Shown here piece after piece: positions 3,343-27,419 of a DNA stretch of 32,000 nucleotides. How positions within the stretch are numbered: position 1 is the first letter of the stretch; each line of letters begins with the position of its first letter. Source of the stretch: Desulfocapsa sulfexigens DSM 10523 (GTDB lineage Bacteria; Desulfobacterota; Desulfobulbia; Desulfobulbales; Desulfocapsaceae). Under the pieces are notes generated by a model. The model was given only the letters and a program-made list of their open reading frames with translations. It made no database searches and was not told the DNA's origin. The translations under genes were made by a program, and so were the position numbers. Where the stretch lies: NCBI RefSeq assembly GCF_000341395.1, contig NC_020304.1:3360001-3392000 (forward strand), written 5' to 3'.

Positions 3343-3453
3343 TGGTCATTAGCTGAATCTGATCAGCGGCTGATCTACTGCCAATTCATTACAATTTTTA
3401 TCATTATTTACAGTTATACAAAATTATAGTTTTACAAATTAAGAGGAGAGAAA

Positions 3454-4761: not shown

Positions 4762-4780
4762 GAAAACGATAGGAAATTTT

Positions 4781-4806
4781 CTTTCTGCAACACACAATGC
4801 AGAAAG
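4781..4806 (+). other. Intercistronic stem-loop (9-bp perfect stem, 8-nt loop, no U-tract)
   Basis: ctttctgca (4781-4789) pairs with tgcagaaag (4798-4806), with loop acacacaa. It lies between the NrfD-like and FeS genes. Confidence 0.5.
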
Positions 4807-4856
4807 AGAAATACCTGCCACCCTACTGAATGAATATTTGAAAGGATAGTTATCCC

Positions 4857-5681
4857 ATGAAATTTCCTAAAATAAATTTTGATAATATGAAGAACGAGGG
4901 AACCTCATCAGTCACCCCTCAAGAAAGACGAAAGTTTTTAAAACTCGGCCTTGCAGTCGCTGGTGTCTACGCAGGAGGAAAGATACTTTCCTTAACCTCC
5001 ATCGTTGGAACTGCGCATGCATCAGGTGGCAGCAGCATTGTAAAAAAATACCCATACAATCCACACTACAGTATGGTTATCCGTCAGTCTCTCTGTATTG
5101 ACTGTGAGAAATGCGTTGAATCATGCAACAAAACCAACCATGTCCCTGAATATGGTTATAGAACTCGTATCCTGACAAAGAAATATTCAGGAACTCTTGA
5201 CAAACAGGTTGAGTTTATTCCTGTACTTTGCAATCATTGTAACGATGCCCCCTGTGTAAGAGCATGCCCAACACGGGCAACCTTCAAGGATCCTATAACT
5301 GGTATTGTACGCATGGAGAGTAAAAAATGTATAGGCTGTAAAACCTGCATACTTGCATGCCCCTATGATGCCCGTTATTTCAGTGCTGAAAGACGCGCTG
5401 TAGACAAATGTGACTTCTGCTGGGAAGAAAGACTCTCAAAGGGCGAGACACAGACCGGTTGTTCATCTGCCTGCCCCACTGGAGCCAGAACCTTCGGCAA
5501 CCTTACCGATCCCGAAAATATTGTATACAAACTGGTTCATCAGCTGGAAGAACAGGTATGGGTTCTCCGTCCTGCCGATGATACTAAACCAAATATTTTC
5601 TATATGAAGGGTAATATGCGCTCGGTTGACAATATTCTCAATGGTCAGAAATTCAAATACTTCGATCCTGACAAAGTGTAA
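4857..5681 (+). CDS. Tat-exported 4x[4Fe-4S] ferredoxin-type subunit (NrfC/PsrB-like)
   Basis: Twin-arginine signal ERRKFLKLGLAVAG. Four Cys clusters are present: CIDCEKCVESC, CNHCNDAPCVRACP, CIGCKTCILACP, CDFC...CSSACP. There is no C-terminal TM helix. Confidence 0.9.
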   Translation: MKFPKINFDNMKNEGTSSVTPQERRKFLKLGLAVAGVYAGGKILSLTSIVGTAHASGGSSIVKKYPYNPHYSMVIRQSLCIDCEKCVESCNKTNHVPEYGYRTRILTKKYSGTLDKQVEFIPVLCNHCNDAPCVRACPTRATFKDPITGIVRMESKKCIGCKTCILACPYDARYFSAERRAVDKCDFCWEERLSKGETQTGCSSACPTGARTFGNLTDPENIVYKLVHQLEEQVWVLRPADDTKPNIFYMKGNMRSVDNILNGQKFKYFDPDKV

Positions 5682-5715
5682 CACACCGCACCTGGAACCT
5701 ATCCCGTTTCATCAA

Positions 5716-5755
5716 TCCCTTCCTACCAGTTCCTGGTAGGAAGGGATTTTTTTTT
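5716..5755 (+). terminator. Rho-independent terminator of the cytochrome/NrfD/FeS operon
   Basis: A 13-bp perfect stem, tcccttcctacca (5716-5728) / tggtaggaaggga (5734-5746), is followed by a run of 9 T (5747-5755). It starts 35 nt after the FeS stop. Confidence 0.9.
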
Positions 5756-5804
5756 CTTACTCCCATACTCTCCTTTTTCACCCTTTCACCACATCCCTAT
5801 TAAT

Positions 5805-5822
5805 CCGGCACGCCTTGTGCAT
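5805..5822 (+). promoter_or_regulatory. Sigma-54 (-24/-12) promoter, P1
   Basis: The sequence is ccGGCACgccttgTGCAt. GG at 5807-5808 and GC at 5819-5820 are separated by exactly 10 nt, and 6/6 of GGCACG match the consensus TGGCACG-N4-TTGCW. The core GGCAC-N6-TGCA is shared with P2 at 11245-11260. Confidence 0.65.
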
Positions 5823-5857
5823 ATGAAACATAAAAAGACAGTTTTGTTGGATTTAAC

Positions 5858-5873
5858 GCTACACTTATGTAGT
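5858..5873 (+). promoter_or_regulatory. 16-mer palindromic motif copy A (GCTACACTTATGTAGT)
   Basis: It matches 11028-11043 at 14/16 and 10994-11009 at 13/16. It has internal 5-bp inverted arms CTACA/TGTAG. It lies in the leader downstream of P1. Confidence 0.5.
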
Positions 5874-5974
5874 TTTGTGTGGTTATTGTGTCTCACGAAA
5901 CCACACATCTGTTCCACTACTCTCTGAAATCTGGAACAGTTATGCATATTTTTTATCAGTAATGGATATACAAA

Positions 5975-11043: not shown

Positions 11044-11191
11044 GCGACCTTTCCTCAGCCACCACCCCTACCTAGACGCACTCAACATCCTGTATTTATA
11101 TGTTTTTCTCACCCACGGTGCGCATAAGAATTCATTTAATTGATATTATTCTTAAATAGAATCGAAGCAAACACATTCTAAACAAACCTAA

Positions 11192-11238
11192 ATATATTGT
11201 GTATATTCATATTGTTACAAATAAATATACACATATAT
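11192..11238. promoter_or_regulatory. AT-rich 16-bp inverted repeat abutting P2 (candidate IHF/bending or operator site)
   Basis: atatattgtgtatatt (11192-11207) and aatatacacatatat (11224-11238) are reverse complements apart from a 1-nt gap. The repeat ends 7 nt before the TGGCAC of P2. Confidence 0.4.
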
Positions 11239-11244
11239 CCCCAA

Positions 11245-11260
11245 TGGCACCGTATGTGCA
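11245..11260 (+). promoter_or_regulatory. Sigma-54 (-24/-12) promoter, P2
   Basis: The sequence is TGGCACcgtatgTGCA. GG at 11246-11247 and GC at 11258-11259 are separated by exactly 10 nt. It lies about 47 nt upstream of ATG 11307. Confidence 0.7.
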
Positions 11261-11306
11261 ATAACTCAAGCTAAAGTGGATAAGTCAGCTCTTTCAAGGA
11301 GAACTC

Positions 11307-12212
11307 ATGCAGGCCATACATTTTCACATAGAAAGCTTTCCCAAGACTCTTGATGAGTTCAAGAGGCTTTTTAATAATGAAGAGAAAAGTCTGCGTTTTC
11401 TCTTTTCAAAAAGATGGCCTAACGGTTTCGAGTGCCCTTACTGCAACTGGCTTGATGACAACCTTATACCAACCAAGACTAGAACATGCGGTCATTGTGG
11501 TCACCCAACCTCAATTACCACCAACACAATCATGCATGGAACCAAAAAGCCACTTTCACAATGGCTTATCTCCATATACTGGCTCACATCGACAGCAGGC
11601 GGAAACAGTGCTAAAGATTTGCAGCGTCTGCTGAAACTTTCAAGCTACCAGACTGCATGGACATGGCTGCAAAAGCTGCGCATGGCCATGGCCATCGCAG
11701 ACAAAAAACGGTGTAGCAAAACAGTAGAGATTTCTTCCGATACCATTTCCCTAGGTGGCGAAGCCCACAATAAACCTCTTATTCTGGCCGCTGCTGAGAT
11801 AGTCCTTCCTGCCGGAATTACAGGGAGAATAAAAATGGCAACAATTAGCTCTTTTAACTCGGAAACCGTCAACTCCTTTCTTGAGCAACATGTTGCGCCT
11901 GGTGCCTCTCTTATCACACCAGAAGATACGCAATACAAACTCATTACTGGCAACAATTTCGTGACAATTACAGACCCTGCAATTTACCGAACTAAACAAA
12001 TAATCAAAAGTTTTGAGATCTGGATCAATAAGATTCACCGAGGTGGAGTTGCAGCAAAACACCTGCAACTTTATCTCGACGAGTTTTGTTTTCGACGCAA
12101 TGCTGAAATGCTGCCGGACAGAGAAGCAATATTTAACCTTCTTCTTTCAGGCGTAATCAGTAAAAAATCGCTCTCCTACAAAAGCATCATTTCGCAATCC
12201 ACAACGGAGTAG
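11307..12212 (+). CDS. IS1595-family transposase-like protein (N-terminal Zn-ribbon plus ISXO2-like domain), with no detectable IS ends
   Basis: AAGGAG RBS. Zn-ribbon RWPNGFECPYCNW...CGHCGH. VEISSDTISLGG resembles the first-Asp block vEvDEtyiGG, and the C-terminal KHLQLYLDEFCFRRN is the family signature. By eye, the second catalytic Asp position is Pro (LITPEDTQY), and the region before the Glu block is short. The stop lies 3 nt before the ftsH ATG. Confidence 0.7.
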   Translation: MQAIHFHIESFPKTLDEFKRLFNNEEKSLRFLFSKRWPNGFECPYCNWLDDNLIPTKTRTCGHCGHPTSITTNTIMHGTKKPLSQWLISIYWLTSTAGGNSAKDLQRLLKLSSYQTAWTWLQKLRMAMAIADKKRCSKTVEISSDTISLGGEAHNKPLILAAAEIVLPAGITGRIKMATISSFNSETVNSFLEQHVAPGASLITPEDTQYKLITGNNFVTITDPAIYRTKQIIKSFEIWINKIHRGGVAAKHLQLYLDEFCFRRNAEMLPDREAIFNLLLSGVISKKSLSYKSIISQSTTE

Positions 12213-12215
12213 AAT

Positions 12216-14039
12216 ATGTCTCAAATCCAGACAGGATTATTGGTCCTTCTTCTTACTTTCCTTGGTGTTGTTGGATACAACGTCTATCTTCACGAAACTA
12301 CTCCCAATGATATTTCGTACACCGAGTTCGTAGAACTGCTTGAAGACGGTAAAATAAAAGATATACACCTCAAGGGTGGTGTCGTTACTGGTACAGACCT
12401 GACCCTCCATGAGTTCAGCTCTTTTATTGTTGACCTCCCTTCCATTCTCCCCCTAATTGAACGTCAGGGAGTAACAATCACAGCAGAAAAGGATAGTGAG
12501 ACTCTCAGCGGCTTTATGCAATCAATGGTTCCAGTCTTTCTTATTCTTGGCGGTTATCTTATTTTTTCAAGAATGCAGAAAGGTGATAAAGGTGGATTCG
12601 GAAAAAACAAAAGCCGCTCTTTTCACCCTAAAAAGAATACAGGAGTCACTTTTGACGACGTAGCTGGTATCAGTGAAGCCAGAACTGAGCTCGTTGAGAT
12701 TGTAGACTCATTAAAAAATCCTGAAAAATTCTCAAGGCTTGGCGGATATGTGCCAAAGGGAGTTCTCCTCCAGGGCCCTCCAGGAACCGGAAAAACTCTC
12801 CTTGCCAAGGCAATAGCCGGGGAAGCCTTAGTCCCCTTTTATTCCATTGGCGGATCCGATTTTGTTGAAATGTTTGTTGGTGTTGGGGCGTCACGGGTTC
12901 GGGAGCTTTTTACCGAAGCCAAAAAGAATTCACCATGCATCATATTTATAGATGAAATTGATGCCATAGGCGGAAAACGAAGTGGCGGAAATGCTACCGG
13001 ATCAAACGACGAACGTGAACAGACATTGAATGCGCTGCTGGTCGAGATGGATGGATTCGATTCTAACGAAACCGTTATCATCATTGGGGCAACAAACCGT
13101 CCTGACATGCTTGATCCTGCACTTTTAAGGCCCGGACGTTTTGATCGCCAGGTAACTATATCATTGCCGGATGTAAAGGGACGCCGCAACATTCTTGAGG
13201 TCTATGCAAAAAAAATAGTTATGTCTCCCAGTGTCAATCTGTCAGAGATTGCGCGATCAATCCCAGGGTTCAGTGGTGCTGAAATTGCCAACCTCGTCAA
13301 TGAGGCTGCTCTAACTGCAGCCCGTTACAACAAAAAGGCTGTTGAAACATCAGATTTTGATGAGGCAAAAGACAAGATAAGTCTCGGTCTCGAACGTAAA
13401 AATGTTGTCATCAATGAAAAAGACCGCAGGGTCACAGCATATCATGAAGCTGGCCATGCGATTACAGCAAAACTTTTGCCCGACACCGATCCCGTACACA
13501 AGATATCCATTATTCCTCGTGGGCAAGCCCTTGGCCTTACCCAGCAATTGCCTCTTGCTGATAAACACACCTACTCTCGTGACTATCTCCTTAACAGAAT
13601 CAAAATACTCATGGGTGGCAGAATAGCAGAGGAAATAATTTTTGATCATCAAACTACAGGTGCCAGCAATGATCTCGTTGGAGCAACTGAGATTGCCAGT
13701 CGTTTTGTCTGTGAATTCGGCATGAGTTCAACTATTGGCCCAATCGCCTACATGCAGGAACAGGGTGGTTTTCTAGGCGGAACAAGCACGATGAAACCCT
13801 ACAGCGAAAAAACTGCAGAACGCATCGATAATGAAATCAAAAGGGTTATTGAACAATGCTATGTGGAAACAACAGAACTTCTGACTCAGAACAGTAAATT
13901 TCTCCACAAACTCGCTGAGGCCCTTCTTGTCAACGAAACCGTGGATGGTGAAGAATTCGATATCGTCCATAACTGTTATATAAACGAAAAAAATATTGAA
14001 AAAAATTTAAAGAATAAACGCAAGGAGGAACGGCTTTAA
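12216..14039 (+). CDS. ftsH: ATP-dependent zinc metalloprotease FtsH, paralog 2 (complete)
   Basis: 607 aa with two N-terminal TM helices flanking a ~75-aa loop. Walker A GPPGTGKT, Walker [38 protein letters not shown]. The RBS ACGGAG lies inside the preceding ORF. Confidence 0.95.
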
Positions 14040-14635: not shown

Positions 14636-14674
14636 TCAGAACATCCAGTGACCAGTTTTATGAGAGGAAAAAAA

Positions 14675-15640
14675 ATGAAAAAACTATTTAGCCGTAGAAA
14701 TTTTCTAAAAGGCGGGCTTGCAACGACAGCAGCCGCCGCGGTACTTAAAAATAAAGAAACCAAGGCATCGGGTGACTTCGAAGGATATCCCGATGGCATG
14801 GGTGTACTCGTAGACCTGACCCGTTGTGTTGGCTGCCGATCATGTGAAGCCGCATGTAACAAGGAACAGGAACTTCCAGAACCAGCAAAACCATTCACCG
14901 ATTTTTCAATCTTCGACGAAATGCATCATGGTCAGAAAAGACGCACGGACGAAACAGCTTACACCGTAGTCAATCGGTACGATGTACCAGAACTCGACCA
15001 TCCACTATTCAGGAAATTTCAATGTAATCATTGCCAGGAACCAGCATGCCTCACCTCCTGCTTTGTTAATGCTTATACAAAAACACCTGAAGGTGCTGTT
15101 ATCTATAACTCTAAGGTCTGTGTTGGCTGCAGAACCTGTATGATAGCCTGCCCCTTCTACGTACCAACCTTTAAATATTCCAGTGCATTCAGTCCTAAAA
15201 TCATGAAGTGTGTATTCTGTTACGATACCCGCCTTAAAGAAGGAAAAGCCCCTGCATGTGTTGAGGCATGCCCACAGGAAGCATTGACCTTTGGCAAGCG
15301 TGTTGACTGTATCGATATGGGTCGCCAGCGTATTCGTGAAACTCCTGGGAAATATGTTGATCATATTTATGGCGAGCATGAGGTTGGAGGTACTGCCTGG
15401 ATGTATCTTTCCAGTGTACCTTTTGATAAAGTTGGTTTTGATACCCACGTCCCAAAAGAACCTATCATTAATTCAGTTAAAGACTTCCTTGCCATGGTAC
15501 CAATGGTACTCACCATCTGGCCTGGACTCTTTGTAGGATTCCACTTACTGGCTACACGGAAAGAGAAAATGATGGAAATGGAAAAAGAAAAAGAACTTGC
15601 CAAACAAAAAGCAACCGATGAGAAGGAGGAGCAGGTATGA
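14675..15640 (+). CDS. Tat-exported 4Fe-4S subunit with a C-terminal membrane anchor (HybA/HmcB/DsrO-like)
   Basis: The preferred start is ATG 14675, 6 nt after GAGAGGA, giving MKKLFSRRNFLKGG, a classic Tat signal. The ORF-track GTG at 14648 is less likely. Cys clusters: CVGCRSCEAAC, CNHCQEPACLTSC, CVGCRTCMIACP, CVFC...CVEACP. It has a C-terminal TM helix (FLAMVPMVLTIWPGLFVGFHLLA) and a K/E-rich tail. Confidence 0.9.
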   Translation: MKKLFSRRNFLKGGLATTAAAAVLKNKETKASGDFEGYPDGMGVLVDLTRCVGCRSCEAACNKEQELPEPAKPFTDFSIFDEMHHGQKRRTDETAYTVVNRYDVPELDHPLFRKFQCNHCQEPACLTSCFVNAYTKTPEGAVIYNSKVCVGCRTCMIACPFYVPTFKYSSAFSPKIMKCVFCYDTRLKEGKAPACVEACPQEALTFGKRVDCIDMGRQRIRETPGKYVDHIYGEHEVGGTAWMYLSSVPFDKVGFDTHVPKEPIINSVKDFLAMVPMVLTIWPGLFVGFHLLATRKEKMMEMEKEKELAKQKATDEKEEQV

Positions 15641-16890
15641 AACTCTTTTCAAAAGAACGACCTGATATTCCAATCGTCAACCATCTCAAAGCAGATGGTA
15701 CAGAGTGGACAGTTAAAGAAAAACTCTGGTTAGGCCTGTCAGTATCAGAGTACAAAAAACAGTTTTTCAGAAATCCTGTAAACTGGCTGATGATAGCAAT
15801 TTTTGCTGTTGGTGTTCCACTTATTGTTGGACGTTATATCTTTGGTCTTGGCTGGGTAACCCATGCCTCCAATGACTATCCCTGGGGTCTTTTTCTTGGA
15901 TTCGGACTTTTTGGAATGGTCCCACTTTCAGCATCAGGATTTATGCTTGGAACAACAGTAGAGCTTTTTGGCAGAAAAGATTTTCATGCCATTGAACGCT
16001 TAGCCCTGCTCAACGGTCTTCTCGGTTACTTCTTTGCTGTACTGTTCCTTGAGGTTGACCTTGGCATGCCATGGCGTCTTCCTTACCCTATGTTCGTGTC
16101 TCTAGGACCTGCTGCCGTACTTTTTCTTGTTGCATGGCATGTTGCCACCTATCTTTCTGTTCAAATAGCAGAAGTACTCCCTGCCTTTTTTGAGTGGATT
16201 GGCTGGCTCAAAGGAAAACGTATAATCAGGAAGTATGTTCTTGGACTCACAGTAGCAGGAATTATCCTTTCTACACTCCATCAGGGAGCTCTGGGTGCAT
16301 TATTCACCTATGCACCTGCAAAAGTCCATCCATTATGGCTGTCGGTGAATTTCCAATGGATACATTTTTTCTGCTCATCTATTTTTGCAGGATTATCCAT
16401 GGTCATAATTGCATCAACACTAATTAAAAACTTCATGGGATGGCGCTGTGATGATGAATTCAAAGACAATCTTGACTACATCACCATAGGACTGGCAAAA
16501 GGTGCTTCATATGCCATGATAACATACCTGATCATCAAAATAGTTGCGGTTGCTCATGACCAGGAATGGTCATATCTTCTCACCGGATGGGGCAGTTACT
16601 ACATGTTGGAACTTGGCGTTGCAGTGGTACTTCCAATGTTTATGTTTGCCATTGGTATCAGGAATAAATGGGTAACACTCATTAGATTCGGTGCCTTTAT
16701 TGCTGCATTTGGTATCATCTGGAATCGTCTGAACACTGCTCTTATTTGTTACAACTGGCAGATGTATCAGGAAATTCCTCACTGGAAGGAAGTGTGGATA
16801 ACGATTACAATTTACTCACTCTATTTCCTGACCTACCGCTTTATCGTCTATCGCCTTCCCATCGTATATGGATGGAAGGGTGAAAAATAA
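15637..16890 (+). CDS. NrfD/HybB/DsrP-family polytopic membrane subunit
   Basis: ATGA overlap with the FeS gene stop. 417 aa with about 10 TM helices. The N-terminal block YPWGLFLGFGLFGMVPLSASGF is typical of this family. Confidence 0.85.
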   Translation: MKLFSKERPDIPIVNHLKADGTEWTVKEKLWLGLSVSEYKKQFFRNPVNWLMIAIFAVGVPLIVGRYIFGLGWVTHASNDYPWGLFLGFGLFGMVPLSASGFMLGTTVELFGRKDFHAIERLALLNGLLGYFFAVLFLEVDLGMPWRLPYPMFVSLGPAAVLFLVAWHVATYLSVQIAEVLPAFFEWIGWLKGKRIIRKYVLGLTVAGIILSTLHQGALGALFTYAPAKVHPLWLSVNFQWIHFFCSSIFAGLSMVIIASTLIKNFMGWRCDDEFKDNLDYITIGLAKGASYAMITYLIIKIVAVAHDQEWSYLLTGWGSYYMLELGVAVVLPMFMFAIGIRNKWVTLIRFGAFIAAFGIIWNRLNTALICYNWQMYQEIPHWKEVWITITIYSLYFLTYRFIVYRLPIVYGWKGEK

Positions 16891-16911
16891 AAATCTGTAG
16901 TCATCTTAACA

Positions 16912-16945
16912 GCCAGAGTTTCCAAGAGTATTTGGAAACTCTGGC
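16912..16945 (+). other. Intercistronic 14-bp perfect stem-loop without a U-tract
   Basis: gccagagtttccaa (16912-16925), loop gagtat, ttggaaactctggc (16932-16945). It lies between the NrfD-like gene and the sensor gene. Confidence 0.6.
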
Positions 16946-16980
16946 CACTTCCATACCCTACAACAAAAGAGAGATAAAAG

Positions 16981-18405
16981 ATGAGAAACTTTCTTTCAAA
17001 ACTATCCTTGAAACGTATATTCTCTCTTTTTACTGTCACAACCATAGTCCTGCTTTTCATTGTGATCTTCTTTGCAGGAAAACAGTATTTTCTCTTTCGA
17101 CATTGCGAAAAACTTGTTGACTCAAGCCAGCATCTCCTCTTTCAATTTACCGGAATAAAAGAACACATAAACGAAACCCTGCTCAGTAACGGCACACTGA
17201 ACACTCCTGAAATAAACAAGGAAATCCAAAGCCTCGACTCACAGTTACAACATATACTGGAAGACATTCTCATTCCCGAGGAATTCAAACTTAACTTTAT
17301 CAGTCAGCTCGATCTTGTAAATATCACAGTGGCATTGAGGAATTTGCAAAACAGCACTCCTCCGATCAATAACGAGCAGTTGGCGACACTTTCTGCCCAA
17401 CTCCGTAGTGTCAATTCAAAACTCACCGGTTTTCATGAATTGATAAGCAGATACACCCAGACGCAGCTCCTGGGACTTCATAAAGCACTTGTTGGACTCC
17501 TTTCAATCGTAATTGCTTTGGTGAGCATCATGCTTCTCACCATAAATCGATATATAACCTCCCCCATCCTTCATTATTGCCGGACACGTTCTCCGAGTGA
17601 AACAGAGCCAGTAACTCTCTTTTCCCTACATAAAACAATCGAAACATTGGCAGACAATCCTGTTGCAGGATCGGTAACTAGCCCAGATGACAGTCTTGAG
17701 TTGACACGTCTCTACAGATACAGCTCAATAGGACACTTGCTTGGAGGGCTCAGTCATGAACTGACAAATATTTCGAATGGTATTCTTAATTACACCCAGG
17801 CAATTATTGACCTGAGTAATGATTCTAATTTAGATGCGGACTCTCGACAGCTACTGCACAAACTTTTTGTTGAAGAAAAAAAGATGTCTCAGCTTCTGAG
17901 CAATATGATTGCTTTTACAAGTGGTAGTGCCCAGGGACAGGCAAAAGTACTTTCTGTTGAAGAACTTTTTGAAAACATTAGGACACTCGTTCACGGAACC
18001 TTTAAAAGTGAACAAATAAACCTCAATATTAAACTCAGCAATCCGGCATTTATGCTGAAAAACCATGTAAGTGATTTACAACTTGTCATCCTTTCTGCCA
18101 TACAAAATAGCCGAACGGCCCTCAATTATCGTTATGTGGGGGTTGTCCCCGAGTCAGAAAAGAAAACAATACAGCTCTCCTTCGACGAACCTCTCCAGAA
18201 TAGCAACAGCATATGTGTCGAGATTCTTGATAACGGTGCCAGTCATTCTAAAACGGCAGATGGGAGTAAAACGACCAGGCCATGGCACAATATGAATGTC
18301 TGCAAAAGTTTTCTTCAGACCTTTGGCGGAACCCTTGAGCTCACCAGAACGAGTGACAAAACCAATCGTTGCCTTATCTGTCTTCCTTTATCAAAAGATA
18401 ATTAA
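16981..18405 (+). CDS. Two-TM sensor histidine-kinase-like protein with an intact H-box but degenerate ATP-binding boxes (sensor paralog B)
   Basis: It has the same TM / 130-aa loop / TM layout as the 1136 protein, and the loop is homologous. H-box LSHELTNISNGILNYTQ, N-box ILSAIQNSRTAL. G1 is DNGASH instead of DNGxGI. No F-box or GxGLGL G2 is present (RPWHNMNVCKSF in that position). Confidence 0.85.
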   Translation: MRNFLSKLSLKRIFSLFTVTTIVLLFIVIFFAGKQYFLFRHCEKLVDSSQHLLFQFTGIKEHINETLLSNGTLNTPEINKEIQSLDSQLQHILEDILIPEEFKLNFISQLDLVNITVALRNLQNSTPPINNEQLATLSAQLRSVNSKLTGFHELISRYTQTQLLGLHKALVGLLSIVIALVSIMLLTINRYITSPILHYCRTRSPSETEPVTLFSLHKTIETLADNPVAGSVTSPDDSLELTRLYRYSSIGHLLGGLSHELTNISNGILNYTQAIIDLSNDSNLDADSRQLLHKLFVEEKKMSQLLSNMIAFTSGSAQGQAKVLSVEELFENIRTLVHGTFKSEQINLNIKLSNPAFMLKNHVSDLQLVILSAIQNSRTALNYRYVGVVPESEKKTIQLSFDEPLQNSNSICVEILDNGASHSKTADGSKTTRPWHNMNVCKSFLQTFGGTLELTRTSDKTNRCLICLPLSKDN

Positions 18406-18484: not shown

Positions 18485-19405
18485 TCAACCAGCAACTTTC
18501 TCCGCAAAAAGAGTATGGCTGGCTGCAGTTGATATTGCGAGTACAGCTGGATGAGACAATATTTTTTCAATTGAGATTGCATAAAATCGATATTGCACCT
18601 TTTCCGTTCTCCCCACAATAGAAACCTTATACTGACGCTGCACCTCCTCTTCAATCACCGTTGGTGCCATAAAAACACCATCACCTCGCTGACCGAAGGC
18701 TTTAAGCAGAGCAGCGTCATCAAATTCACCAACGATTAAAGGTGTGATCTTGAGAGACTCAAACCATACATCCAGATCGTTTCTCAAGGTGGTTTCCTGC
18801 AATGGCATCAGTATTGGGGTCCCACTGAGGGAATAAGGAAAATCTGCTTCAAGAGGGCCACTGAGTTCGTCTACTCCAAAAAATGTTACACCACATTCCC
18901 CAAGTATGTGATTATAAGCTTTGATGCTCATACCAGTTCCGATGGGTGAATCGCTGATTATGATATCAAGTTTGTGCAGGGCCAGCTCTGCAAGCAGGGC
19001 TTCTTTTTTGTTTTCACAACAGATCAGGCGTATCGGTTCCGGCAGCTTGAATACCGGATCAAGGAGATCACGTACTATCATCTTGGGAAGTGCATCAACG
19101 ATCCCAACTCGCAGAGGGATTCGCCCGGCCTTTGGATGCCCATGGATCGTATCCATCAACTCTCTTCCAAGTGAAAATATTTCATCTGCATATTGGAATA
19201 CCAATTGACCCATTTCAGTGGGTTCAATGTTGCGCCCCACGCGATGGAAGAGCTTCACCTCAAGAGTTTCTTCAAGTGTGGTGAGTTGGGAGCTGATGGT
19301 AGAAGGTACCAAGTTGAGCCGCTTACCGGCTGCAGTAATGCCGCCCTCGCGTACAACGTTCCAGAAATAATAAAGATGATGATAGTTGAGCCATTCCATA
19401 CACAC
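18485..19405 (-). CDS. LysR-family transcriptional regulator, NhaR-like
   Basis: The N-terminal wHTH is MEWLNYHHLYYFWNVVREGGITAAGKRLNLVPSTISSQLTTLEETLEVKLFHR. It closely follows the NhaR N-terminus pattern (NYNHLYYFW...). A LysR substrate-binding-type C-terminal region follows. Confidence 0.88.
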   Translation of the reverse strand: MCMEWLNYHHLYYFWNVVREGGITAAGKRLNLVPSTISSQLTTLEETLEVKLFHRVGRNIEPTEMGQLVFQYADEIFSLGRELMDTIHGHPKAGRIPLRVGIVDALPKMIVRDLLDPVFKLPEPIRLICCENKKEALLAELALHKLDIIISDSPIGTGMSIKAYNHILGECGVTFFGVDELSGPLEADFPYSLSGTPILMPLQETTLRNDLDVWFESLKITPLIVGEFDDAALLKAFGQRGDGVFMAPTVIEEEVQRQYKVSIVGRTEKVQYRFYAISIEKILSHPAVLAISTAASHTLFAEKVAG

Positions 19406-19408
19406 ACC

Positions 19409-19450
19409 CTATTGTTTGTTTTATCGAACGATAACTATTGTTTTATCAAC
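19409..19450. promoter_or_regulatory. Divergent-promoter operator candidates: direct repeat plus a 6-bp-arm palindrome
   Basis: ctattgtttgttttatcgaac (19409-19429) and ctattgttttatcaac (19435-19450) form a direct repeat. The palindrome ttatcg-aa-cgataa is at 19421-19434. These lie between the LysR gene and the lipoprotein gene. Confidence 0.4.
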
Positions 19451-19525
19451 TTGTCCCAACAATTCTTCATAATTACTCTTTTTTATAAGGGTTTAAAATA
19501 ATAATTTCACCCAGGAGTCAGAATA

Positions 19526-19756
19526 ATGAAATTAAACTTCAAAATGAGACTGATACTTCTAGGTTTGTTGTCTTTTACAGGATTGACGGCATGTGACCAG
19601 GCAGACAAAATGATTGATGATGCTGCAGAAACCGCAAAACAGACAGTGAGTACGGTAAAAGACAGGGCTGCTGAGGTACTGGACACCACAGAAGAAAAAG
19701 ACTCAGAAGAGGACTCAACAGAGAAAAAAGAAGATAAAGAAAAGGATAAAGACTGA
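19526..19756 (+). CDS. Small acidic lipoprotein
   Basis: AGGAG RBS. Signal peptide with lipobox LLSFTGLTAC. The mature part is about 55 aa and highly acidic (EEKDSEEDSTEKKEDKEKDKD). Confidence 0.75.
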   Translation: MKLNFKMRLILLGLLSFTGLTACDQADKMIDDAAETAKQTVSTVKDRAAEVLDTTEEKDSEEDSTEKKEDKEKDKD

Positions 19757-19852
19757 CCACAACGAACTTGAGCGTCGGCCACTTTTCTTTACCTCTCCCT
19801 TTTTATCTCCTGGCAGGCGCTCATTCTTTTCATCGCAACTCGAAGAAGCTCT

Positions 19853-20190
19853 ATGAAGATTTTATTGAAAACCCACAACCTTGAATTGATTCGGGAGACA
19901 ACCACCAGCATGGATAGATGTCTTCGTATTGCCCTCGGTAGATTTTTAGTATCAAGTAATAAGGTTACAGTACGCTTGACGGATTTCAGCGTGTTAAAGG
20001 AACCATTGATAAAGAGTGTTTTATCTTTCTTAGCCAGCGAAAAGGAGGTGAGGTTATTGCCTAGAGAAGGGGCGGATATTGCAATCAAACCTTAAATCGC
20101 TATACAAATCAATTGGCCGTGCAGTTGAGCGGGAACTGGAAGCTGACCTTGATGGTGAGCGCATTGACAAATTGTCAAATAAAAACAGGA
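19853..20190 (+). pseudogene. HPF/RaiA-like (short form) gene remnant with two -1 frame changes
   Basis: The 19853 frame gives MKILLKTHNLEL...ALGRFLVSSNKVTVRLTD. The frame starting near 19978 gives DGFQRVKGTIDKECFIFLSQRKGGEVIA, with a stop at 20062. A third frame from about 20064 gives ...SLYKSIGRAVERELEADL. Joined together, these follow the short-HPF pattern as I remember it: ALGRF..VxVxLsD.NG.KGG.DK.C......l..AI..A..r..r.l.r. Family assignment is from memory only. Confidence 0.35.
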
Positions 20191-20197
20191 GGATGCC

Positions 20198-20479
20198 ATG
20201 GGACGTGAGAAACTGCTGTTTAAAAGTGAAGAGAAGAAGAATAGTGCTGAAATCGTGGCATTTTTACGCAACATTGCCGATAAGATCGAACAGGATGGAA
20301 GTATGACCTTGCTGCAGGGTGAAGACAGGGTTGTCCTTGATTTTCCGAGCAGTATGACCATGGAAATCAAGGTCGAAGATGAAGAAAAAAGACGCAAGGG
20401 CACTAAGCGCACATTTGAAATTGAACTCGAGTGGTACCCCGACTCTGACTACAAACAAAGAAGCGTAGTCATAGAATAA
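20198..20479 (+). CDS. Small acidic protein, amphi-Trp-domain-like
   Basis: Strong RBS AGGAGG 5 nt upstream. 93 aa. The C-terminal FEIELEWYP block resembles the amphi-Trp domain signature as I remember it. It lies directly upstream of the P-type ATPase. Confidence 0.65.
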   Translation: MGREKLLFKSEEKKNSAEIVAFLRNIADKIEQDGSMTLLQGEDRVVLDFPSSMTMEIKVEDEEKRRKGTKRTFEIELEWYPDSDYKQRSVVIE

Positions 20480-20522
20480 ATTCAAACTATTAACCAATAC
20501 TTCAGAGCTGGAAATTGACAGC

Positions 20523-23234
20523 ATGAAAAACATATCATTATCAGATAAAGAGTGGCACCACCTACCTACGGACGAAATAATTCACCTGCTAACCAGTGAC
20601 CGTAAAAAAGGGCTGGTGAAGGAGGAGGCAGAGCGGCGTTTTCATCGATTTGGTGCCAATGTTCTCACCGCGAAGCAGGGACAGAATGTATGGATACGAT
20701 TTCTAATGCAATTTCATCAGCCTCTGATCTATATCCTAATTGCTGCTGGCGTCGTTACTGCGGCATTGCAGGAGTGGGTTGATTCTGGGGTGATCTTCGG
20801 GGTTATCCTGGTTAATGCAATAATTGGTTTTATCCAGGAATCCAAGGCAGAAAGTGCCCTTGCCGCATTGGCCAATACAATGGTTGCAGAGGCCACAGTT
20901 CTACGCAATGGAGAAAAAAAACGTATACCATCAACAGAGCTGGTTCCAGGAGATATTGTCTTGCTCCAGGCAGGTGATAAAGTACCTGCCGATTTGCGGC
21001 TTCTGACAATTCGTAATCTACAAGTGGATGAATCTGCTTTGACCGGTGAATCGATACCTGTTGAAAAAAGAGTGGAAAAGCTTGCGCAGGACACAGCCCT
21101 GGCAGAACGAATAAATATGGCTTATGCCTCATCCATGGTTACATATGGTCAGGGAATCGGTATTGTTACTGCAACAGGTGACCACACTGAAGTAGGCAGA
21201 ATCTCCAGGCTCATTTCCTCGGCACAGGATTTGGCCACGCCCCTTACCCGTAAAATTGCACATTTCAGTCATATCCTGCTCTACGCTATCCTGCTCCTTG
21301 CTGCAATTACTGTGGCAGTGGGTCTACTATGGGGACAATCGCTTTTTGACATGTTCATGGCTGCTGTTGCTCTCGCTGTAGGAGCGATCCCTGAAGGACT
21401 ACCTGCTGCAGTGACCATTACCCTTGCCATCGGTGTTTCCAGGATGGCAAAACGCAGAGCCATTATCCGTAAACTTCCTGCCGTGGAAACTCTTGGCAGT
21501 ACCACGGTTATTTGTTCGGATAAAACAGGTACGCTCACTGAAAATCAGATGACGGTACAGGCTATCATAGCTGGAGATGTTCATTACGAAGTCAGTGGAG
21601 TTGGTTATGCTCCATTTGGTCAAATTGTCAGACAGGAAGGGGCAGAAGATAAATACAGCACCGCACTCAACGAATGTCTGCGGGCAGGTATCCTGTGTAA
21701 CGATAGTTTACTTCTGGAGAAAGATAATAACTGGCAGGTACAGGGCGATCCAACAGAAGGAGCACTGTTTGTGTCAGCTGCCAAGAACGGATTTAACAGA
21801 AAGGAAACCGTGACACAGAACCCCCGCCTTGATTCAATTCCTTTTGAATCCCAGCACCAGTATATGGCTACCCTTCATGATACAGGTACCGACAGACCGC
21901 GAACAGTCTATATTAAAGGTGCAGTGGAACAGATAGTAGCCAAATGTGCCGTAGCAATGGATGAAGACGGCAATACCAAAACACTTCAAAGCGATACGAT
22001 CCATCGGGAAGTCTCTCGCATGGCGGCAAGAGGATTGCGGGTACTGGCTTTTGCCTGTGTAAGATTGCCGGCTCGCACCATGACAATAGATCATGCAGAT
22101 GTTGCATCAGGGCTTACGTTTCTCGGCCTGCAGGGCATGATCGATCCGCCTAGAGCTGAGGTTGTGGTAGCGGTGAAAACCTGCAGGAAAGCCGGAATCA
22201 AGATAAAAATGATTACTGGGGATCACCCGATTACCGCTGCAGCCATTGCCGGACAGATAGGTATTTCAACTGATACCATCGATAAAACTGGAAAAGGAAT
22301 AGTGCTTACCGGTGCAATGCTTGAAAAACTCTCAGACGATGAATTGACTATGGCCGCTGAAGAGACTAACGTCTTCGCAAGGGCCACCCCAGAACAGAAG
22401 ATTCGTCTGGTACGTGCCCTCCAGACAAATGGTCATGTGGTGGCCATGACCGGTGACGGAGTTAATGATGCCCCGGCTCTGAAACAGGCCAATATTGGTG
22501 TGGCCATGGGCATCACCGGCACAGATGTCTCCAAGGAAGCAGCCGACATGGTACTCACAGATGATAATTTCAGCTCTATTGAGGCAGCGGTGGAGGAAGG
22601 GCGCGGCGTGTTTGATAACCTGACCAAGTTTATTGTATGGACTCTACCCACCAACCTTGGAGAAGGGCTGGTTATCCTCACGGCAATTTTTCTCGGCATA
22701 ACGCTGCCCATCCTACCGGTACAGATCCTCTGGATAAACATGACTACAGCAGGTTTTCTGGGTCTGATGCTGGCCTTTGAACCAAAGGAGCCGGGGATTA
22801 TGCAACGACAGCCGCGTCATCCAGATATTCCCATTCTCACCCGGGAATTGATCACCAGGATTTTTCTGGTGGGCACTTTGCTGCTCATCGGCGCTTTTGG
22901 ACTTTTTGAATTGGAACTGGCAAAGGGTGCTTCCCTTGAACAGGCACGTACTGTAGCGGTAAACACTTTTGTTATTATGGAGCTTTTTTACCTGTTTAAC
23001 TGCCGCTCTTTAACTAAATCAATTTTCCAGCTGGGTGTTTTTACCAACATGTGGGTCTTTGGAGGGGTTTCAGTTATGCTTTTTATACAGCTCATCTACA
23101 CCTACTTACCCACCATGAACCGCTTGTTTCACAGCGCACCAATCGGTGCAGGCTCCTGGGCACAAATTGGTGTGGCCGGCCTTGCTGCCTATGTAATCGT
23201 GGAAGTGGAAAAGAAACTTCGCAATAATCGTTAA
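20523..23234 (+). CDS. Cation-transporting P-type ATPase, P2 (Ca2+/Mg2+-ATPase-like) class
   Basis: 903 aa. It has an N-terminal cation-ATPase-N-type region, actuator TGES (ALTGESIPV), TM4 IPEGLPAAV, phosphorylation site CSDKTGTLT, and hinge MTGDGVNDAPALKQA. There are about 10 TM helices. No heavy-metal CPC/HMA motifs are present. Confidence 0.93.
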   Translation: MKNISLSDKEWHHLPTDEIIHLLTSDRKKGLVKEEAERRFHRFGANVLTAKQGQNVWIRFLMQFHQPLIYILIAAGVVTAALQEWVDSGVIFGVILVNAIIGFIQESKAESALAALANTMVAEATVLRNGEKKRIPSTELVPGDIVLLQAGDKVPADLRLLTIRNLQVDESALTGESIPVEKRVEKLAQDTALAERINMAYASSMVTYGQGIGIVTATGDHTEVGRISRLISSAQDLATPLTRKIAHFSHILLYAILLLAAITVAVGLLWGQSLFDMFMAAVALAVGAIPEGLPAAVTITLAIGVSRMAKRRAIIRKLPAVETLGSTTVICSDKTGTLTENQMTVQAIIAGDVHYEVSGVGYAPFGQIVRQEGAEDKYSTALNECLRAGILCNDSLLLEKDNNWQVQGDPTEGALFVSAAKNGFNRKETVTQNPRLDSIPFESQHQYMATLHDTGTDRPRTVYIKGAVEQIVAKCAVAMDEDGNTKTLQSDTIHREVSRMAARGLRVLAFACVRLPARTMTIDHADVASGLTFLGLQGMIDPPRAEVVVAVKTCRKAGIKIKMITGDHPITAAAIAGQIGISTDTIDKTGKGIVLTGAMLEKLSDDELTMAAEETNVFARATPEQKIRLVRALQTNGHVVAMTGDGVNDAPALKQANIGVAMGITGTDVSKEAADMVLTDDNFSSIEAAVEEGRGVFDNLTKFIVWTLPTNLGEGLVILTAIFLGITLPILPVQILWINMTTAGFLGLMLAFEPKEPGIMQRQPRHPDIPILTRELITRIFLVGTLLLIGAFGLFELELAKGASLEQARTVAVNTFVIMELFYLFNCRSLTKSIFQLGVFTNMWVFGGVSVMLFIQLIYTYLPTMNRLFHSAPIGAGSWAQIGVAGLAAYVIVEVEKKLRNNR

Positions 23235-23387
23235 AGCTTGAAAGTATAAGCTTGCTATATAAGGAAAGTATGGAAAAACGTATAGACATGATTTGTCAGA
23301 CCCAAAAGAGTCCCAGGTTCAATACTGCGAAAAATCATTCGTATGGAAGATTAGACACAACAACACAATGGATTTAACAGGAGATAA

Positions 23388-23645
23388 AATATAAGACGCT
23401 TTAAAAATATTCCTCCGGTTCATGACAGTGGCGAGTCTGGCCAATCAAGCCTCAGCAGGGCTATTGATTTGGCAAGACGCAATCCAATACAGCTGCACCA
23501 GGAGCATATCGTTCAGGGGAGAACCGATGGTGTCGTGATGGGTACTGTGTGCCGTGCAGGAATACCCGTTTTTTTTTTCATCGGCAATACAGCTGAAAAA
23601 ATATTGCACAGGCTGGACTGTTCCATTTTGGCAGGTAGGCCAGAC
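23388..23645 (+). pseudogene. Universal stress protein (UspA-family) C-terminal fragment
   Basis: The frame is open only from 23388. DGVVMGTVCRAGIPVFFFIGNTAEKILHRLDCSILAGRP matches the USP C-terminal pattern D-hhhMG-x3-R-x-G-x5-GS-hAEK-hh-x4-CP-hLhV. The N-terminal half of the domain, an ATG and an RBS are all absent. A 10-T homopolymer lies at 23569-23578. Confidence 0.35.
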
Positions 23646-23712
23646 TGCTTTATCAGGCCGGTACAACTTGAACCCATAACTCTTTTAAATTGCACTGTCT
23701 CAGTAAGTAATT

Positions 23713-24537
23713 ATGCAAACAATTAAAATACAGGAAAAATTTGACAAACTTCGCAGCAATAAACTATTTGAGTTTCTTGTCATCGGGGTAATTATTTTTT
23801 CAGCACTGGTTATTGGAGCAAAAACCTATAATATTTCTCGCGGTCTTCTTCAGGTGGTTCACCTGTTAGACTGGTTCATTACCTTCTTTTTTTTAACGGA
23901 AATCACCATTCGCTTTCTGGGGGAAAAGAATAAGATAGATTTTTTTAAACAGGGCTGGAATATTTTTGACACCCTGATAGTTACTGTCAGCCTTATTCCA
24001 ATACAGGACAGTGAGCTTGCAGTTATCGGACGTTTGATTCGGATCTTTCGTGTCCTTCGAATGGTTTCCATTATTCCCGAAATGAGACTGCTATTGAATT
24101 CGCTATTTGTAGCTTTGCCTCAACTTGGTTATATCGTCGGCTTAATGTTTATCATTTTCTACATCTATGCTGCCATTGGAAGCACTTTCTTTGCCGCTAT
24201 TAATCCGGAACTGTGGGGTGACATATCTATTTCACTGTTAACTCTGTTCCGGGTCATGACCTTTGAAGACTGGACCGATGTCATGTATGAAACCATGAAA
24301 GTGCACCCCCTATCCTGGCTCTATTATCTCAGTTTTATCTTTTTCACTGCTTTTGCTTTTTTGAATATGGTCATCGGGGTCGTGGTCAATGTTCTTAACG
24401 AAGAAAGTGATAAAATAAACAGAAAGGAACAACAGGACGCACAACAGATCAGCATGGAAGATCTCGACAAAAAAATCGAAGAACTCAAGGTATTAATTTT
24501 GCAAAGATCGACTTCTTCAACGAAGAAAGAAAGCTGA
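23713..24537 (+). CDS. Single-domain voltage-gated cation channel (BacNaV/NaChBac family) with a Ca-channel-like filter TFEDWTD
   Basis: 274 aa with six TM segments. S4 is GRLIRIFRVLRMVS, with four Arg at every third position. The pore SLLTLFRVMTFEDWTDVMY aligns with NaChBac SLLTLFQVVTLESWASGVM, and the filter codons are at 24259-24279. There is a C-terminal coiled coil (EDLDKKIEELKVLIL). Confidence 0.9.
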   Translation: MQTIKIQEKFDKLRSNKLFEFLVIGVIIFSALVIGAKTYNISRGLLQVVHLLDWFITFFFLTEITIRFLGEKNKIDFFKQGWNIFDTLIVTVSLIPIQDSELAVIGRLIRIFRVLRMVSIIPEMRLLLNSLFVALPQLGYIVGLMFIIFYIYAAIGSTFFAAINPELWGDISISLLTLFRVMTFEDWTDVMYETMKVHPLSWLYYLSFIFFTAFAFLNMVIGVVVNVLNEESDKINRKEQQDAQQISMEDLDKKIEELKVLILQRSTSSTKKES

Positions 24538-25580
24538 TGAAAAACAATAAGAGCAACCTGGCGCAAAAATGGGCAATCCTTGCTGTTCTGACAGTAGGTA
24601 TCACATTGCTGCATTACAATACGGAGCAGAGCCTCTATTATTTTCATGTGTTCTACGGCGAGCTGTACTGTATTCCGATTGTTCTGGCTGGGTTTTGGTT
24701 TGGTTTACGTGGGGCCCTTCTGGTTTCGACCACAATCACAGTATTTTACCTGCCATTTATTTACTGGCACTGGCAGGGCCTTTCCCCGAATGCTCTGGAT
24801 AGCATTTTGTCTCTCTGTCTTTATAACGGCTTGGCTCTACTCACTGGTGCTCTCAAAGACAGAGAGACAGCTACAAGAGAAATGGTGTTACAGACCGACA
24901 ACCTTATTGTCATGGGAAAATCCCTTGCTGCAGCTGCCCATGACATGCGATCCCCTCTGATGCTTATTGGCGGTTTTGCCAGGCGTATTTTGAAAAATAT
25001 GGACGATCACGATCCGGCTCGCCCAAAACTGACCCTTATCATACAGGAAACTGAAAAGATGGAACGAATGGCCGAGGATATGCTAGACTTCTCCAAACCT
25101 TTGGCCTTGACAAAGGTGCGGGGAAATATAGATACAACTGTCAGGAATGGACTGGCTAAAGTACAGGAGGCTGCTCGAAAGAAAAGAGTATCTGTTGAAT
25201 ACCACCCCAGCCCTGAACCGGTAGATATTAAATTCGACAGCGTACGTTTTGAGCAGGCGCTTATCAACCTGATACAGAATGCAGTTGAAGCCTCTCCAGA
25301 AGGAGACACAGTTACAATAGCATTATCAGTTTCATCACTCGGAAGCCCGTTTCTCGATGTGGCGGATAACGGCAGCGGCATCCCACTTGCAAAAAGACAA
25401 AAGGTATTTGATCCCTTCTTTACCACAAAAAAGGAAGGTACCGGCCTTGGACTACCAATTGTGAAAAAGATCATCGACGCCCACGGCTGGTCTCTGCAAA
25501 TTCTGGATAATAATGGTGGTGGGACTATTTGCAGAATAATGCTGAAGGAGGGCAACGGTCATGACTGCATTCATCAATGA
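24537..25580 (+). CDS. Membrane sensor histidine kinase (polytopic N-terminal domain, no large periplasmic domain)
   Basis: The ATG overlaps the channel stop by 1 nt (TGATG). About 4 N-terminal TM helices. H-box AAAHDMRSPL, N-box LIQNAVEAS, G1 DNGSGI, G2 EGTGLGLPIVKKII. Confidence 0.9.
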   Translation: MKNNKSNLAQKWAILAVLTVGITLLHYNTEQSLYYFHVFYGELYCIPIVLAGFWFGLRGALLVSTTITVFYLPFIYWHWQGLSPNALDSILSLCLYNGLALLTGALKDRETATREMVLQTDNLIVMGKSLAAAAHDMRSPLMLIGGFARRILKNMDDHDPARPKLTLIIQETEKMERMAEDMLDFSKPLALTKVRGNIDTTVRNGLAKVQEAARKKRVSVEYHPSPEPVDIKFDSVRFEQALINLIQNAVEASPEGDTVTIALSVSSLGSPFLDVADNGSGIPLAKRQKVFDPFFTTKKEGTGLGLPIVKKIIDAHGWSLQILDNNGGGTICRIMLKEGNGHDCIHQ

Positions 25581-26388
25581 ACTGATCACGGGGAAATATT
25601 TTTCCACAGTGGGTGATACGACCTCTGCAAACCATTTGAACCGTAATAGACGCATTGTGCAGTTTTTCCTGTTTGGTGTGGCTATAGATCTTCTACTCAT
25701 CATGGCTGAAATGGCTGCTGGGATCTCTCCCTTGGAAGATATCTTCAGAAACCCTATGCTATATGGTTATGTTTTTATGGTCACTGTGGCGGCATTTTCA
25801 TTTTTCGGTGCAATGATAGGTTCCCGGGAGGATCATCTGGAGAAACTCGCTCTGCGAGATCCACTTACCGGACTTTTTAATTCCCGCTATCTATGGACTC
25901 GTATGGATGAGCAGTGGGCTACCGGTAAACGGGAAAAGAGTGATAGTTCTCTGATCCTATTTGATCTCGACTTTTTCAAAAGAGTGAATGACAGATACGG
26001 ACATCCGGTGGGTGACGAACTGCTCAAACATGTCGGAAAGATCCTGCAACATGCTGCCCGCAGGAGCGATGTGGCTGCCCGAATCGGTGGTGAAGAGTTC
26101 GTTTTTTTCTTGCCCAACACCTCTTCGACCGCTGCTGCAGCCATTGCGGAACGGATCCGTGATACAATCAGCCGAACAACACTGATAACGGATAAAAATC
26201 ATCAGGTTACAATTACTATTTCAGCAGGTGTTGCTAGTATAGACGACTATAATGCTAATATTCCAAGGACGCTTTACGCGAAAGCTGACAAAGCCCTATA
26301 CCTTGCAAAACAACAGGGAAGAAATCGAGTTGTTATCAGCAAGGAATCGAAAAAAGAGATATCTAAAAAAATAACGACCATGGTATAG
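25561..26388 (+). CDS. Membrane-anchored diguanylate cyclase (GGDEF)
   Basis: RBS GAAGGAGGG. There is a 20-nt overlap with the kinase gene. Two TM helices are followed by a GGDEF domain with active site RIGGEEFVFFL and I-site RRSD five residues upstream. No REC domain. Confidence 0.9.
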   Translation: MTAFINELITGKYFSTVGDTTSANHLNRNRRIVQFFLFGVAIDLLLIMAEMAAGISPLEDIFRNPMLYGYVFMVTVAAFSFFGAMIGSREDHLEKLALRDPLTGLFNSRYLWTRMDEQWATGKREKSDSSLILFDLDFFKRVNDRYGHPVGDELLKHVGKILQHAARRSDVAARIGGEEFVFFLPNTSSTAAAAIAERIRDTISRTTLITDKNHQVTITISAGVASIDDYNANIPRTLYAKADKALYLAKQQGRNRVVISKESKKEISKKITTMV

Positions 26389-26585
26389 GCAAAACTACTC
26401 TGACAAGTCAGAAAACTCTTTAGTTACAGACAATTGCTAATCACCTTATTTGACAACAATAAAAACATACTAAAGTACAGTAAATCGGCCACACCCAGTG
26501 CCACCTACACAAACCTCTCCTCATCGTTTTTCTCACGTTGTAAAATAGAATACTTAAGTTATATTCTCATGTCGACTAACATGCA

Positions 26586-27419
26586 TTATCCGTAACTGTG
26601 CAGGCCCGCCAGGAGGTAATTCACCCCGTAATAAGTAAACATCACCGAGACAAAGCCGACCATAGCAAACCAGGCAATTCTATTCCCACCCCACCCTCTT
26701 GTGAATCTTGCATGTAAGGCTGTTGCATAAATAAACCAGGTAATCAGTGACCAGGTCTCCTTGGGGTCCCAACTCCAATAGGTTCCCCAGGCAGAATTTG
26801 CCCATATGGCACCGGTTACTATCCCAGCTGTCAGCCAGATAAATCCTATCACCAAGGTCTTGTGCATGATGGTGTCAAGAGTTCTCAGGGAAGGCAACAG
26901 TGACAAAAATTTTCCTTCCTGAGCCTTTGCTTTTTTTCTGTCTTTCAGCAGATAAACCACTCCGAGGCCACTGGAAACTGCAAAAGCGGCGTAACCAATA
27001 AAACAGGTGACCACATGGGCAATGAGCCAGTTACTTTGCAGGGCTGGCACAAGAGGCCTGATTTCGGGATTCTTCATTTCAGCCAGGAGCATCGCCACTG
27101 CCGCAAAAGGTATGGCGAAGGCGCCAAGAAAACGATTTTTGTATTTGTATTCCAGCCCCAGATAAAAAACGGCTATGGACCAGGAGAAGAAAACCAATGA
27201 TTCGTACATGTTTGACAGCGGCGCATAGCCAAAACCCATCTGATGTGATTCAATCCACCTCAGACCAATTCCCCCGGTGTTGACCAGAAGAGCAAGAACT
27301 GTTACCGTGCTGGCCACAGCACCATATTGTTCCTTGCGAAAAATAAAGATGCCGACATAAATGAATGCAGCCAGTAAGTATGCAAATGTTGTGACACCGA
27401 GAAGCACTGAGCTATCCAT
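26586..27419 (-). CDS. ccsA: Cytochrome c biogenesis system II heme-handling protein CcsA/ResC
   Basis: GGAGGAAAG RBS. 277 aa, polytopic. Trp-rich WWD motif WGTYWSWDPKETWSLITW. Confidence 0.9.
   Translation of the reverse strand: MDSSVLLGVTTFAYLLAAFIYVGIFIFRKEQYGAVASTVTVLALLVNTGGIGLRWIESHQMGFGYAPLSNMYESLVFFSWSIAVFYLGLEYKYKNRFLGAFAIPFAAVAMLLAEMKNPEIRPLVPALQSNWLIAHVVTCFIGYAAFAVSSGLGVVYLLKDRKKAKAQEGKFLSLLPSLRTLDTIMHKTLVIGFIWLTAGIVTGAIWANSAWGTYWSWDPKETWSLITWFIYATALHARFTRGWGGNRIAWFAMVGFVSVMFTYYGVNYLLAGLHSYG

Follow-up and report, generated by a model that had tools for sequence, protein, structure and literature searches.

We identified, in a 32,000-nucleotide stretch of the Desulfocapsa sulfexigens DSM 10523 genome (contig NC_020304.1, positions 3,360,001 to 3,392,000; hereafter the window, to which our coordinates refer unless a locus is named), a gene for a single-domain voltage-gated cation channel of the BacNav superfamily. 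By sequence, this channel is unremarkable within its clade, which is large, has been described before and has a selectivity filter that reads TFEDWTD. The joint reading that we prefer, with a probability of roughly 55%, is that of a TFEDWTD-clade BacNav channel with a NavPp-like selectivity, located downstream of a P2-type ATPase that is not its dedicated partner and likely co-transcribed with a histidine kinase and a diguanylate cyclase. The initial annotation of this locus read the sequence accurately and over-read its meaning; its central idea, a native Ca2+ channel, has been in print since 2002.

The channel coding sequence (23713..24537, + strand) encodes 274 amino acids, and its translation includes LTLFRVMTFEDWTDVMY. 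The Pfam domain Ion_trans (PF00520) spans residues 17–232 (E = 1.2e-41), in agreement with the open reading frame and with the initial annotation of a single-domain voltage-gated channel at this position. Comparison with PDB entries gave full-length alignments with NavRh (4dxw, 6e-62) and NaChBac (6vwx, 1e-47), and the channel also aligned with single repeats of Cav and Nav channels from eukaryotes. The protein was 100% identical to the database entry "Ion transport protein" of D. sulfexigens DSM 10523 (P0001). Two features of the BacNav superfamily were present: a single six-transmembrane (6TM) Ion_trans domain of about 270 amino acids, and an S4 segment with arginine at every third position (R1–R4). 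The four S4 arginines reported earlier were indeed found, as gating charges R107, R110, R113 and R116 (RLIRIFRVLR, 24031..24060, + strand), and they were invariant in the homolog alignments. Across 42 homologs (65–85% identity) about 90 positions were invariant, and the voltage sensor, the filter and S6 were strongly conserved. An AF2 model built with these 42 homologs as input had a mean pLDDT of 63 and a pTM of 0.29, and it was used for secondary structure alone. At this low confidence we distinguished S1–S6, P1 (residues 165–182), the filter loop (183–186), P2 (187–197) and a C-terminal cytoplasmic helix (residues 248–270; 24454..24522, + strand; pLDDT about 65–76). The latter is probably a tetramerisation helix, and the alignment with NaChBac reaches residue 264 of the query. 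The Rfam scan of the whole window returned no matches.

The selectivity filter, T183-F-E-D-W-T-D189, maps exactly to 24259..24279 (+ strand), where the E-D-W-x-D filter codons had been placed. We checked a possible mis-assignment of the register with a MAFFT alignment of the query and 26 reference channels (the set of Shimomura et al. 2020). TFEDWTD aligned column for column with TLESWAS of NaChBac, TLESWSM of NavAb, TLEDWTD of NavPp, TLEGWVD of CavMr and TLSSWET of NavRh, so the register is right; the HMMER alignment to PDB 4dxw gave the same one. E185 aligned with the filter Glu of NaChBac and NavAb, and T-x-E-x-W, another BacNav feature, was in register. One detail had to be corrected: the second added Asp is located two residues after the Trp (W187-T188-D189) and not three. 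The query also carries the AnclNav filter pattern T-[LF]-E-[DG]-W-x-D; AnclNav filters have one or two more acidic residues than those of canonical BacNavs (Shimomura et al. 2020, PMC7041947). Filter position 4 is Asp186, not the Gly4 of the CavMr type. The Asp residues at positions 4 and 7 are arranged as in CavAb and CaChBac, on a scaffold that is non-canonical (27–36% identity, separate clade). Identity over the P1-filter-P2 region was 59% to NavPp, 44% to NaChBac and 37% to both NavAb and CavMr. Over the whole pore module, no reference channel exceeded 47% identity, and among those with measured selectivity NavPp reached 37%. The 18–20-residue P2–S6 loop of NavPp and CavMr is absent from the query, whose loop is short, as in canonical BacNavs.

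The TFEDWTD filter was exact in all of the best 120 database homologs (66–100% identity), and at least 554 GTDB species, scanned with one genome per species, encode a relative of the channel. A phylogeny against BacNaV and CavMr-type channels, which had been proposed as a check, placed the query in a third clade. In particular, the neighbour-joining tree (200 bootstraps) grouped it with the channels of T. turnerae (99.5%) and H. elongata (99.5%) and with NavRh (98.5%), apart from the NavPp/CavMr branch, the NavAb-like group and the Bacillus group. The channels of T. turnerae and H. elongata are named members of AnclNav, and the clade that they form with the query and NavRh was not joined to the NavPp/CavMr branch. 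Identity to the query was 60% for T. turnerae, 50% for H. elongata, 45.5% for NavRh, 28% for both NavPp and CavMr, and 27–36% for NavAb and NaChBac. [quoted passage not shown]

Natural Ca2+-selective channels of this kind had been presented as very rarely described, but the exact motif was raised in 2002, when Yue et al. asked if bacterial FEDWTD channels are native Ca2+ channels. Four "ancestor-like" BacNavs were later cloned. Two of them, those of T. turnerae and H. elongata, belong to the query's clade, and in 2020 neither produced a detectable current when expressed in Sf9 cells (PMC7041947). Every selectivity statement about this clade is therefore an extrapolation. The D. sulfexigens gene adds one ortholog to a clade that has so far resisted recording, and alone it leaves the known picture unchanged. 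FEDWTD channels have been candidates for voltage-gated Ca2+ entry in bacteria since 2002.

The prediction of a Ca2+-selective channel rests on mutants of canonical BacNavs. The NaChBac mutants LEDWAD and LDDWAD have PCa/PNa values of 73 and 133, respectively, and TLEDWSD-type mutants of NavAb are Ca2+-selective as cited in PMC7041947. In addition, the TLEDWTD filter transferred to the CavMr backbone (CavMr-Pp) still prefers Ca2+ (PCa/PNa 13.8), the P2–S6 loop of the query is short as in canonical BacNavs, and its motif is similar to that of Cav domain II. These observations would fit a native, highly Ca2+-selective channel with a CavAb/CaChBac-like Asp ring, that is, a second natural route besides the Gly filter of CavMr; we regard this as possible and somewhat doubtful. 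Among characterised native channels, NavPp is the only one with this filter type (TLEDWTD), and its preference is for Na+ (PCa/PNa 0.308), with a low-affinity block by Ca2+ (PMC7041947). Even the exact engineered Ca2+-selective filters failed in this scaffold, as NavPp T6S and T6A (TLEDWSD and TLEDWAD) still pass Ca2+ poorly (PMC7041947). The residue at position 4 argues in the same direction: Ca2+ selectivity in AnclNavs needs Gly there and is reduced by Asp, with PCa/PNa falling from 218 to 7.7 in CavMr G4D and rising to 41 in NavPp D4G. The distance of the query from NavAb and NaChBac, in both identity and clade, further weakens the comparison with the engineered channels.

PCa/PNa values of 0.31, 13.8 and 73 for the same or nearly the same filter in different scaffolds mean that selectivity is not predictable from the motif, and reading Ca2+ selectivity off E-D-W-x-D is unsafe. 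The one difference between the query and NavPp filters, Phe at position 2, is probably harmless, since NavAb L176F shows normal conduction and no added block by divalent cations. The closest functional evidence, that from NavPp, speaks against high Ca2+ selectivity. Our best guess, held loosely, is a NavPp-like channel with Na+ as the main current carrier and with Ca2+ appreciably bound, partly permeating and blocking. The silence of the T. turnerae and H. elongata orthologs in Sf9 cells, together with the lack of selectivity of CavMr-Pp among monovalent cations, would also suit a weakly selective cation channel, or one that is silent alone and would open only with a native partner or lipid or under some native condition. 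We consider this unlikely: failure of heterologous expression is common for BacNav homologs, which counts against such a reading, and the strong conservation, seen in about 90 positions that never vary among the 42 homologs, speaks for a functional channel.

The NavPp-like channel would work as follows, as far as family knowledge allows. Four subunits would assemble into a homotetrameric 6TM channel of the BacNav superfamily, in the TFEDWTD clade that includes T. turnerae, H. elongata and NavRh. Depolarisation would shift the four-arginine S4 and open the S6 gate, and ions would then cross a filter surrounded by four Glu and eight Asp residues. In a marine cell the current would be mainly Na+, and high Ca2+ selectivity would not be expected.

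Upstream of the channel we found a gene for a P2-type (SPCA/LMCA1/SERCA-like) P-type ATPase of 903 amino acids (20523..23234, + strand), assigned with Pfam, NCBIfam and PDB comparisons. Its description in the initial annotation, as a P2 ATPase about 480 bp upstream with PEGLP and no heavy-metal motifs, was accurate: the gap measures 478 bp, the motif reads IPEGLP and there was no assignment to a heavy-metal family. The core motifs DKTGT and GDGVND were present, as was the PEGLP of M4 (E309). The best PDB matches were SPCA1 (8e-178) and LMCA1 (1e-168), with SERCA also among the best. The protein passed the generic P-type NCBIfam model and missed the cut-offs of the PMR1-type (709 vs 798) and SERCA-type (606 vs 703) models. 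The M6 sequence WINMTTAG aligned with WVNLVTDG of SERCA2 and WINIIMDG of SPCA1, which places Ala743 (22749-22751) at the position of SERCA D800. The string LWINMTTA (M6, window 22722-22787) was found in 120 of 120 homologs, and the Ala also in the ATPase of locus L006. Other SERCA-site residues are kept, as TNLGEG, WIN..T and IMELF align with SERCA2; we take these to be the equivalents of N768, E771, N796, T799 and E908 (SERCA numbering). The predicted ion specificity of the pump is thus uncertain, because it has Ala743 in place of the Asp at the Ca2+-ligand position D800 and yet retains the other site residues. Na_Ca_ex antiporter genes adjoin two orthologs of the pump (L083 and L085), a hint that the pump may act on Ca2+ or Na+. 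A literature search on the pump motifs INMTTA and PTNLGEG returned nothing relevant.

The gene directly upstream of the ATPase encodes a protein with an Amphi-Trp domain (20198..20479, + strand; PF20068, 6.5e-30). This order was also found in pump ortholog loci L081 (Amphi-Trp at 5674-5955), L087 (5672-5953) and L082, and the Amphi-Trp domain and the ATPase are fused in homolog P0181. These arrangements suggest that the Amphi-Trp protein is a pump accessory and the real partner of the ATPase; our literature search on the Amphi-Trp term found nothing on a pump-accessory role. A divergent LysR-type regulator (18485..19405, - strand; Pfam HTH_1 and LysR_substrate) heads the Amphi-Trp-ATPase module, and it is kept in L001, L002, L081 and L087. 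A 131-aa ORF located upstream of the Amphi-Trp gene in L081 matches window positions 19853-20174 in three frames, and this segment is probably a frameshifted pseudogene in D. sulfexigens. A P2 ATPase subfamily without the canonical M6 Asp, partnered with an Amphi-Trp protein, is in our view a modest lead.

We then considered the proposal that the channel and the ATPase form an influx/extrusion pair for one ion, Ca2+ or Na+. The initial annotation had proposed the Ca2+ version of it. The two genes are close and on the same strand in the window, in L002 (146 bp apart) and in L006; the best matches of the ATPase are Ca2+ pumps, and Na_Ca_ex genes stand beside two pump orthologs. For the genomic context we kept 80 channel ortholog loci, mostly from marine Gammaproteobacteria (52 of them flanked by 5 kb or more on each side). 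A P-type ATPase was found within 10 kb of the channel in three of these loci (L001, L002 and L006). Co-occurrence over these loci goes against the pair, with 77 of the 80 channel loci lacking such a gene at that distance. L001 and L002 belong to close Desulfobulbaceae relatives, and L006 to an unrelated Thiogranum MAG. In L006 an integrase-core (rve_3) fragment is located between the channel and the ATPase (1185-1508), and the adjacency there may have arisen through a mobile element. No conserved neighbour of the channel family was found across the 80 loci; the largest neighbour cluster was present in 13 of them and looks like lineage synteny.

The pump side gave a similar picture. Pump orthologs were sampled in six distinct contexts; five had no channel (two with Na_Ca_ex and three without such a partner), and the sixth, L081/L082, had the channel only as a truncated fragment. 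This 100-aa fragment, beside an IS110 transposase (11121-11423 and 12088-13131 in L081; also in L082), is 93% identical to query residues 117-199, then diverges and ends at a premature stop. The pump, kinase and cyclase genes are intact in L081/L082 despite the truncated channel.

Most of the gap between pump and channel in D. sulfexigens is filled by a remnant of a universal-stress-protein (Usp) gene (23391..23672, + strand), detected with tblastn and blastn against Usp2 of L081. At the protein level, aa 1-35 of Usp2 matched with 74% identity and aa 210-309 with 50%; at the DNA level, the two ends of the gene matched with 85–89% identity, and about 600 bp of the middle were deleted. Two intact Usp genes directly follow the pump in L001, L081/L082 and L087, and ancestrally a pair of Usp genes separated the pump from the channel. 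A scan for promoters and terminators over 19400-26700 gave counts no higher than expected from shuffled sequence and no usable candidate in the pump-channel gap. Judged from gene order, the closeness of pump and channel is a product of local gene loss, with no sign of a dedicated partnership. The ATPase would be part of a LysR/Amphi-Trp/ATPase(/Usp) module of its own. Within the Desulfocapsa lineage this module would have been brought close to the channel, before D. sulfexigens lost the Usp genes in between. The claimed pair thus fails on several counts, namely its occurrence in three of 80 loci, the Usp scar, the Ala at the D800 position of the pump and the truncation of the channel in a relative whose pump is intact, and we find it very improbable. 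Some functional link is possible, since 146 bp separate the co-oriented pump and channel genes in L002 and the two are neighbours in the unrelated L006.

Downstream of the channel, and on the same strand, are a membrane histidine kinase (HisKA and HATPase_c in Pfam; 24537..25580), whose ATG overlaps the TGA of the channel (TGATG, 24535-24539), and a membrane diguanylate cyclase with a GGDEF domain and a GGEEF motif (25561..26388; PF00990, 5.6e-48). The kinase and cyclase genes overlap by 20 nt (25561-25580), and because of these two overlaps a translational coupling of channel, kinase and cyclase is implied. The two enzymes would be the likely co-transcribed partners of the channel in our preferred reading. 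The trio is kept in L001 and L002, in the Desulfocapsa lineage only, and cyclase orthologs were also found in L081/L082. Since this lineage is narrow, we treat the channel-kinase-cyclase operon as a lead and not as a rule. A general association of GGDEF genes with the channel was also considered and set aside: it was seen in 18 of the 80 loci, which by a rough estimate is about the chance level given the abundance of GGDEF in such genomes.

A broader proposal, which we think improbable, is that the TFEDWTD clade, with its hundreds of mostly marine species, is natively Ca2+-selective through a CavAb-like Asp ring, and that Ca2+ entry in Desulfocapsa may feed c-di-GMP signalling. If true, the TFEDWTD Asp ring would be a second natural solution for Ca2+, independent of the CavMr glycine filter, and depolarisation-triggered Ca2+ entry would lead to c-di-GMP signalling via the coupled kinase and diguanylate cyclase.

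Elsewhere in the window, an IS1595-family transposase gene (11307-12212) lies directly upstream of a full-length FtsH gene (12216-14039), and a second FtsH copy (73-1125) runs off the window start. Two respiratory-type clusters were also present, at 2398-5681 and 14648-18405. One comprises a multihaem cytochrome c7, an NrfD-like membrane subunit and a 4Fe-4S protein, and the other a 4Fe-4S protein with a TAT signal, after which come two ORFs (417 and 474 aa) without a Pfam match.

Finally, we compared the channel with its known relatives. The AnclNav of T. turnerae T7901 (YP_003073405) is in the same clade and shares 60% identity, the filter and the pore string with the query, and that of H. 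elongata, in the same clade at 50% identity, has the identical TFEDWTD filter. The hosts differ, as D. sulfexigens is a deltaproteobacterial sulfur disproportionator and the other two are marine Gammaproteobacteria, whose channels gave no currents (PMC7041947). The engineered NaChBac LEDWAD/LDDWAD and NavAb TLEDWSD channels have Asp at positions 4 and 7, as the query does, but their scaffolds are canonical BacNavs of other clades (27–36% identity). CavMr (Meiothermus ruber), the characterised native prokaryotic Cav, is a single-domain channel of the group named AnclNav by its authors, and its filter position 7 is acidic, as in the query; it differs in its TLEGWVD filter, in which Gly4, the key determinant of its Ca2+ selectivity, stands in place of Asp4, in its long P2–S6 loop and in an overall identity of 28%. 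NavRh (4dxw, Rickettsiales sp. HIMB114), the sister of the TFEDWTD clade with 98.5% support, is the closest solved single-domain structure (45.5% identity, 55% in the voltage sensor). Its TLSSWET filter is without Glu at position 3 and therefore tells little about the selectivity of the query; according to a review, the NavRh crystal held a hydrated Ca2+ that was read as a possible blocking site. NavPp (Plesiocystis pacifica) is placed in a separate clade, with 28% overall identity and a Cys-containing P2–S6 loop of 18–20 residues that is missing in the query, whereas its TLEDWTD filter is like that of the query except for Leu instead of Phe at position 2, and the two channels have in common the AnclNav signature FRxxTxEDWTDVMY and 59% identity across P1-filter-P2.
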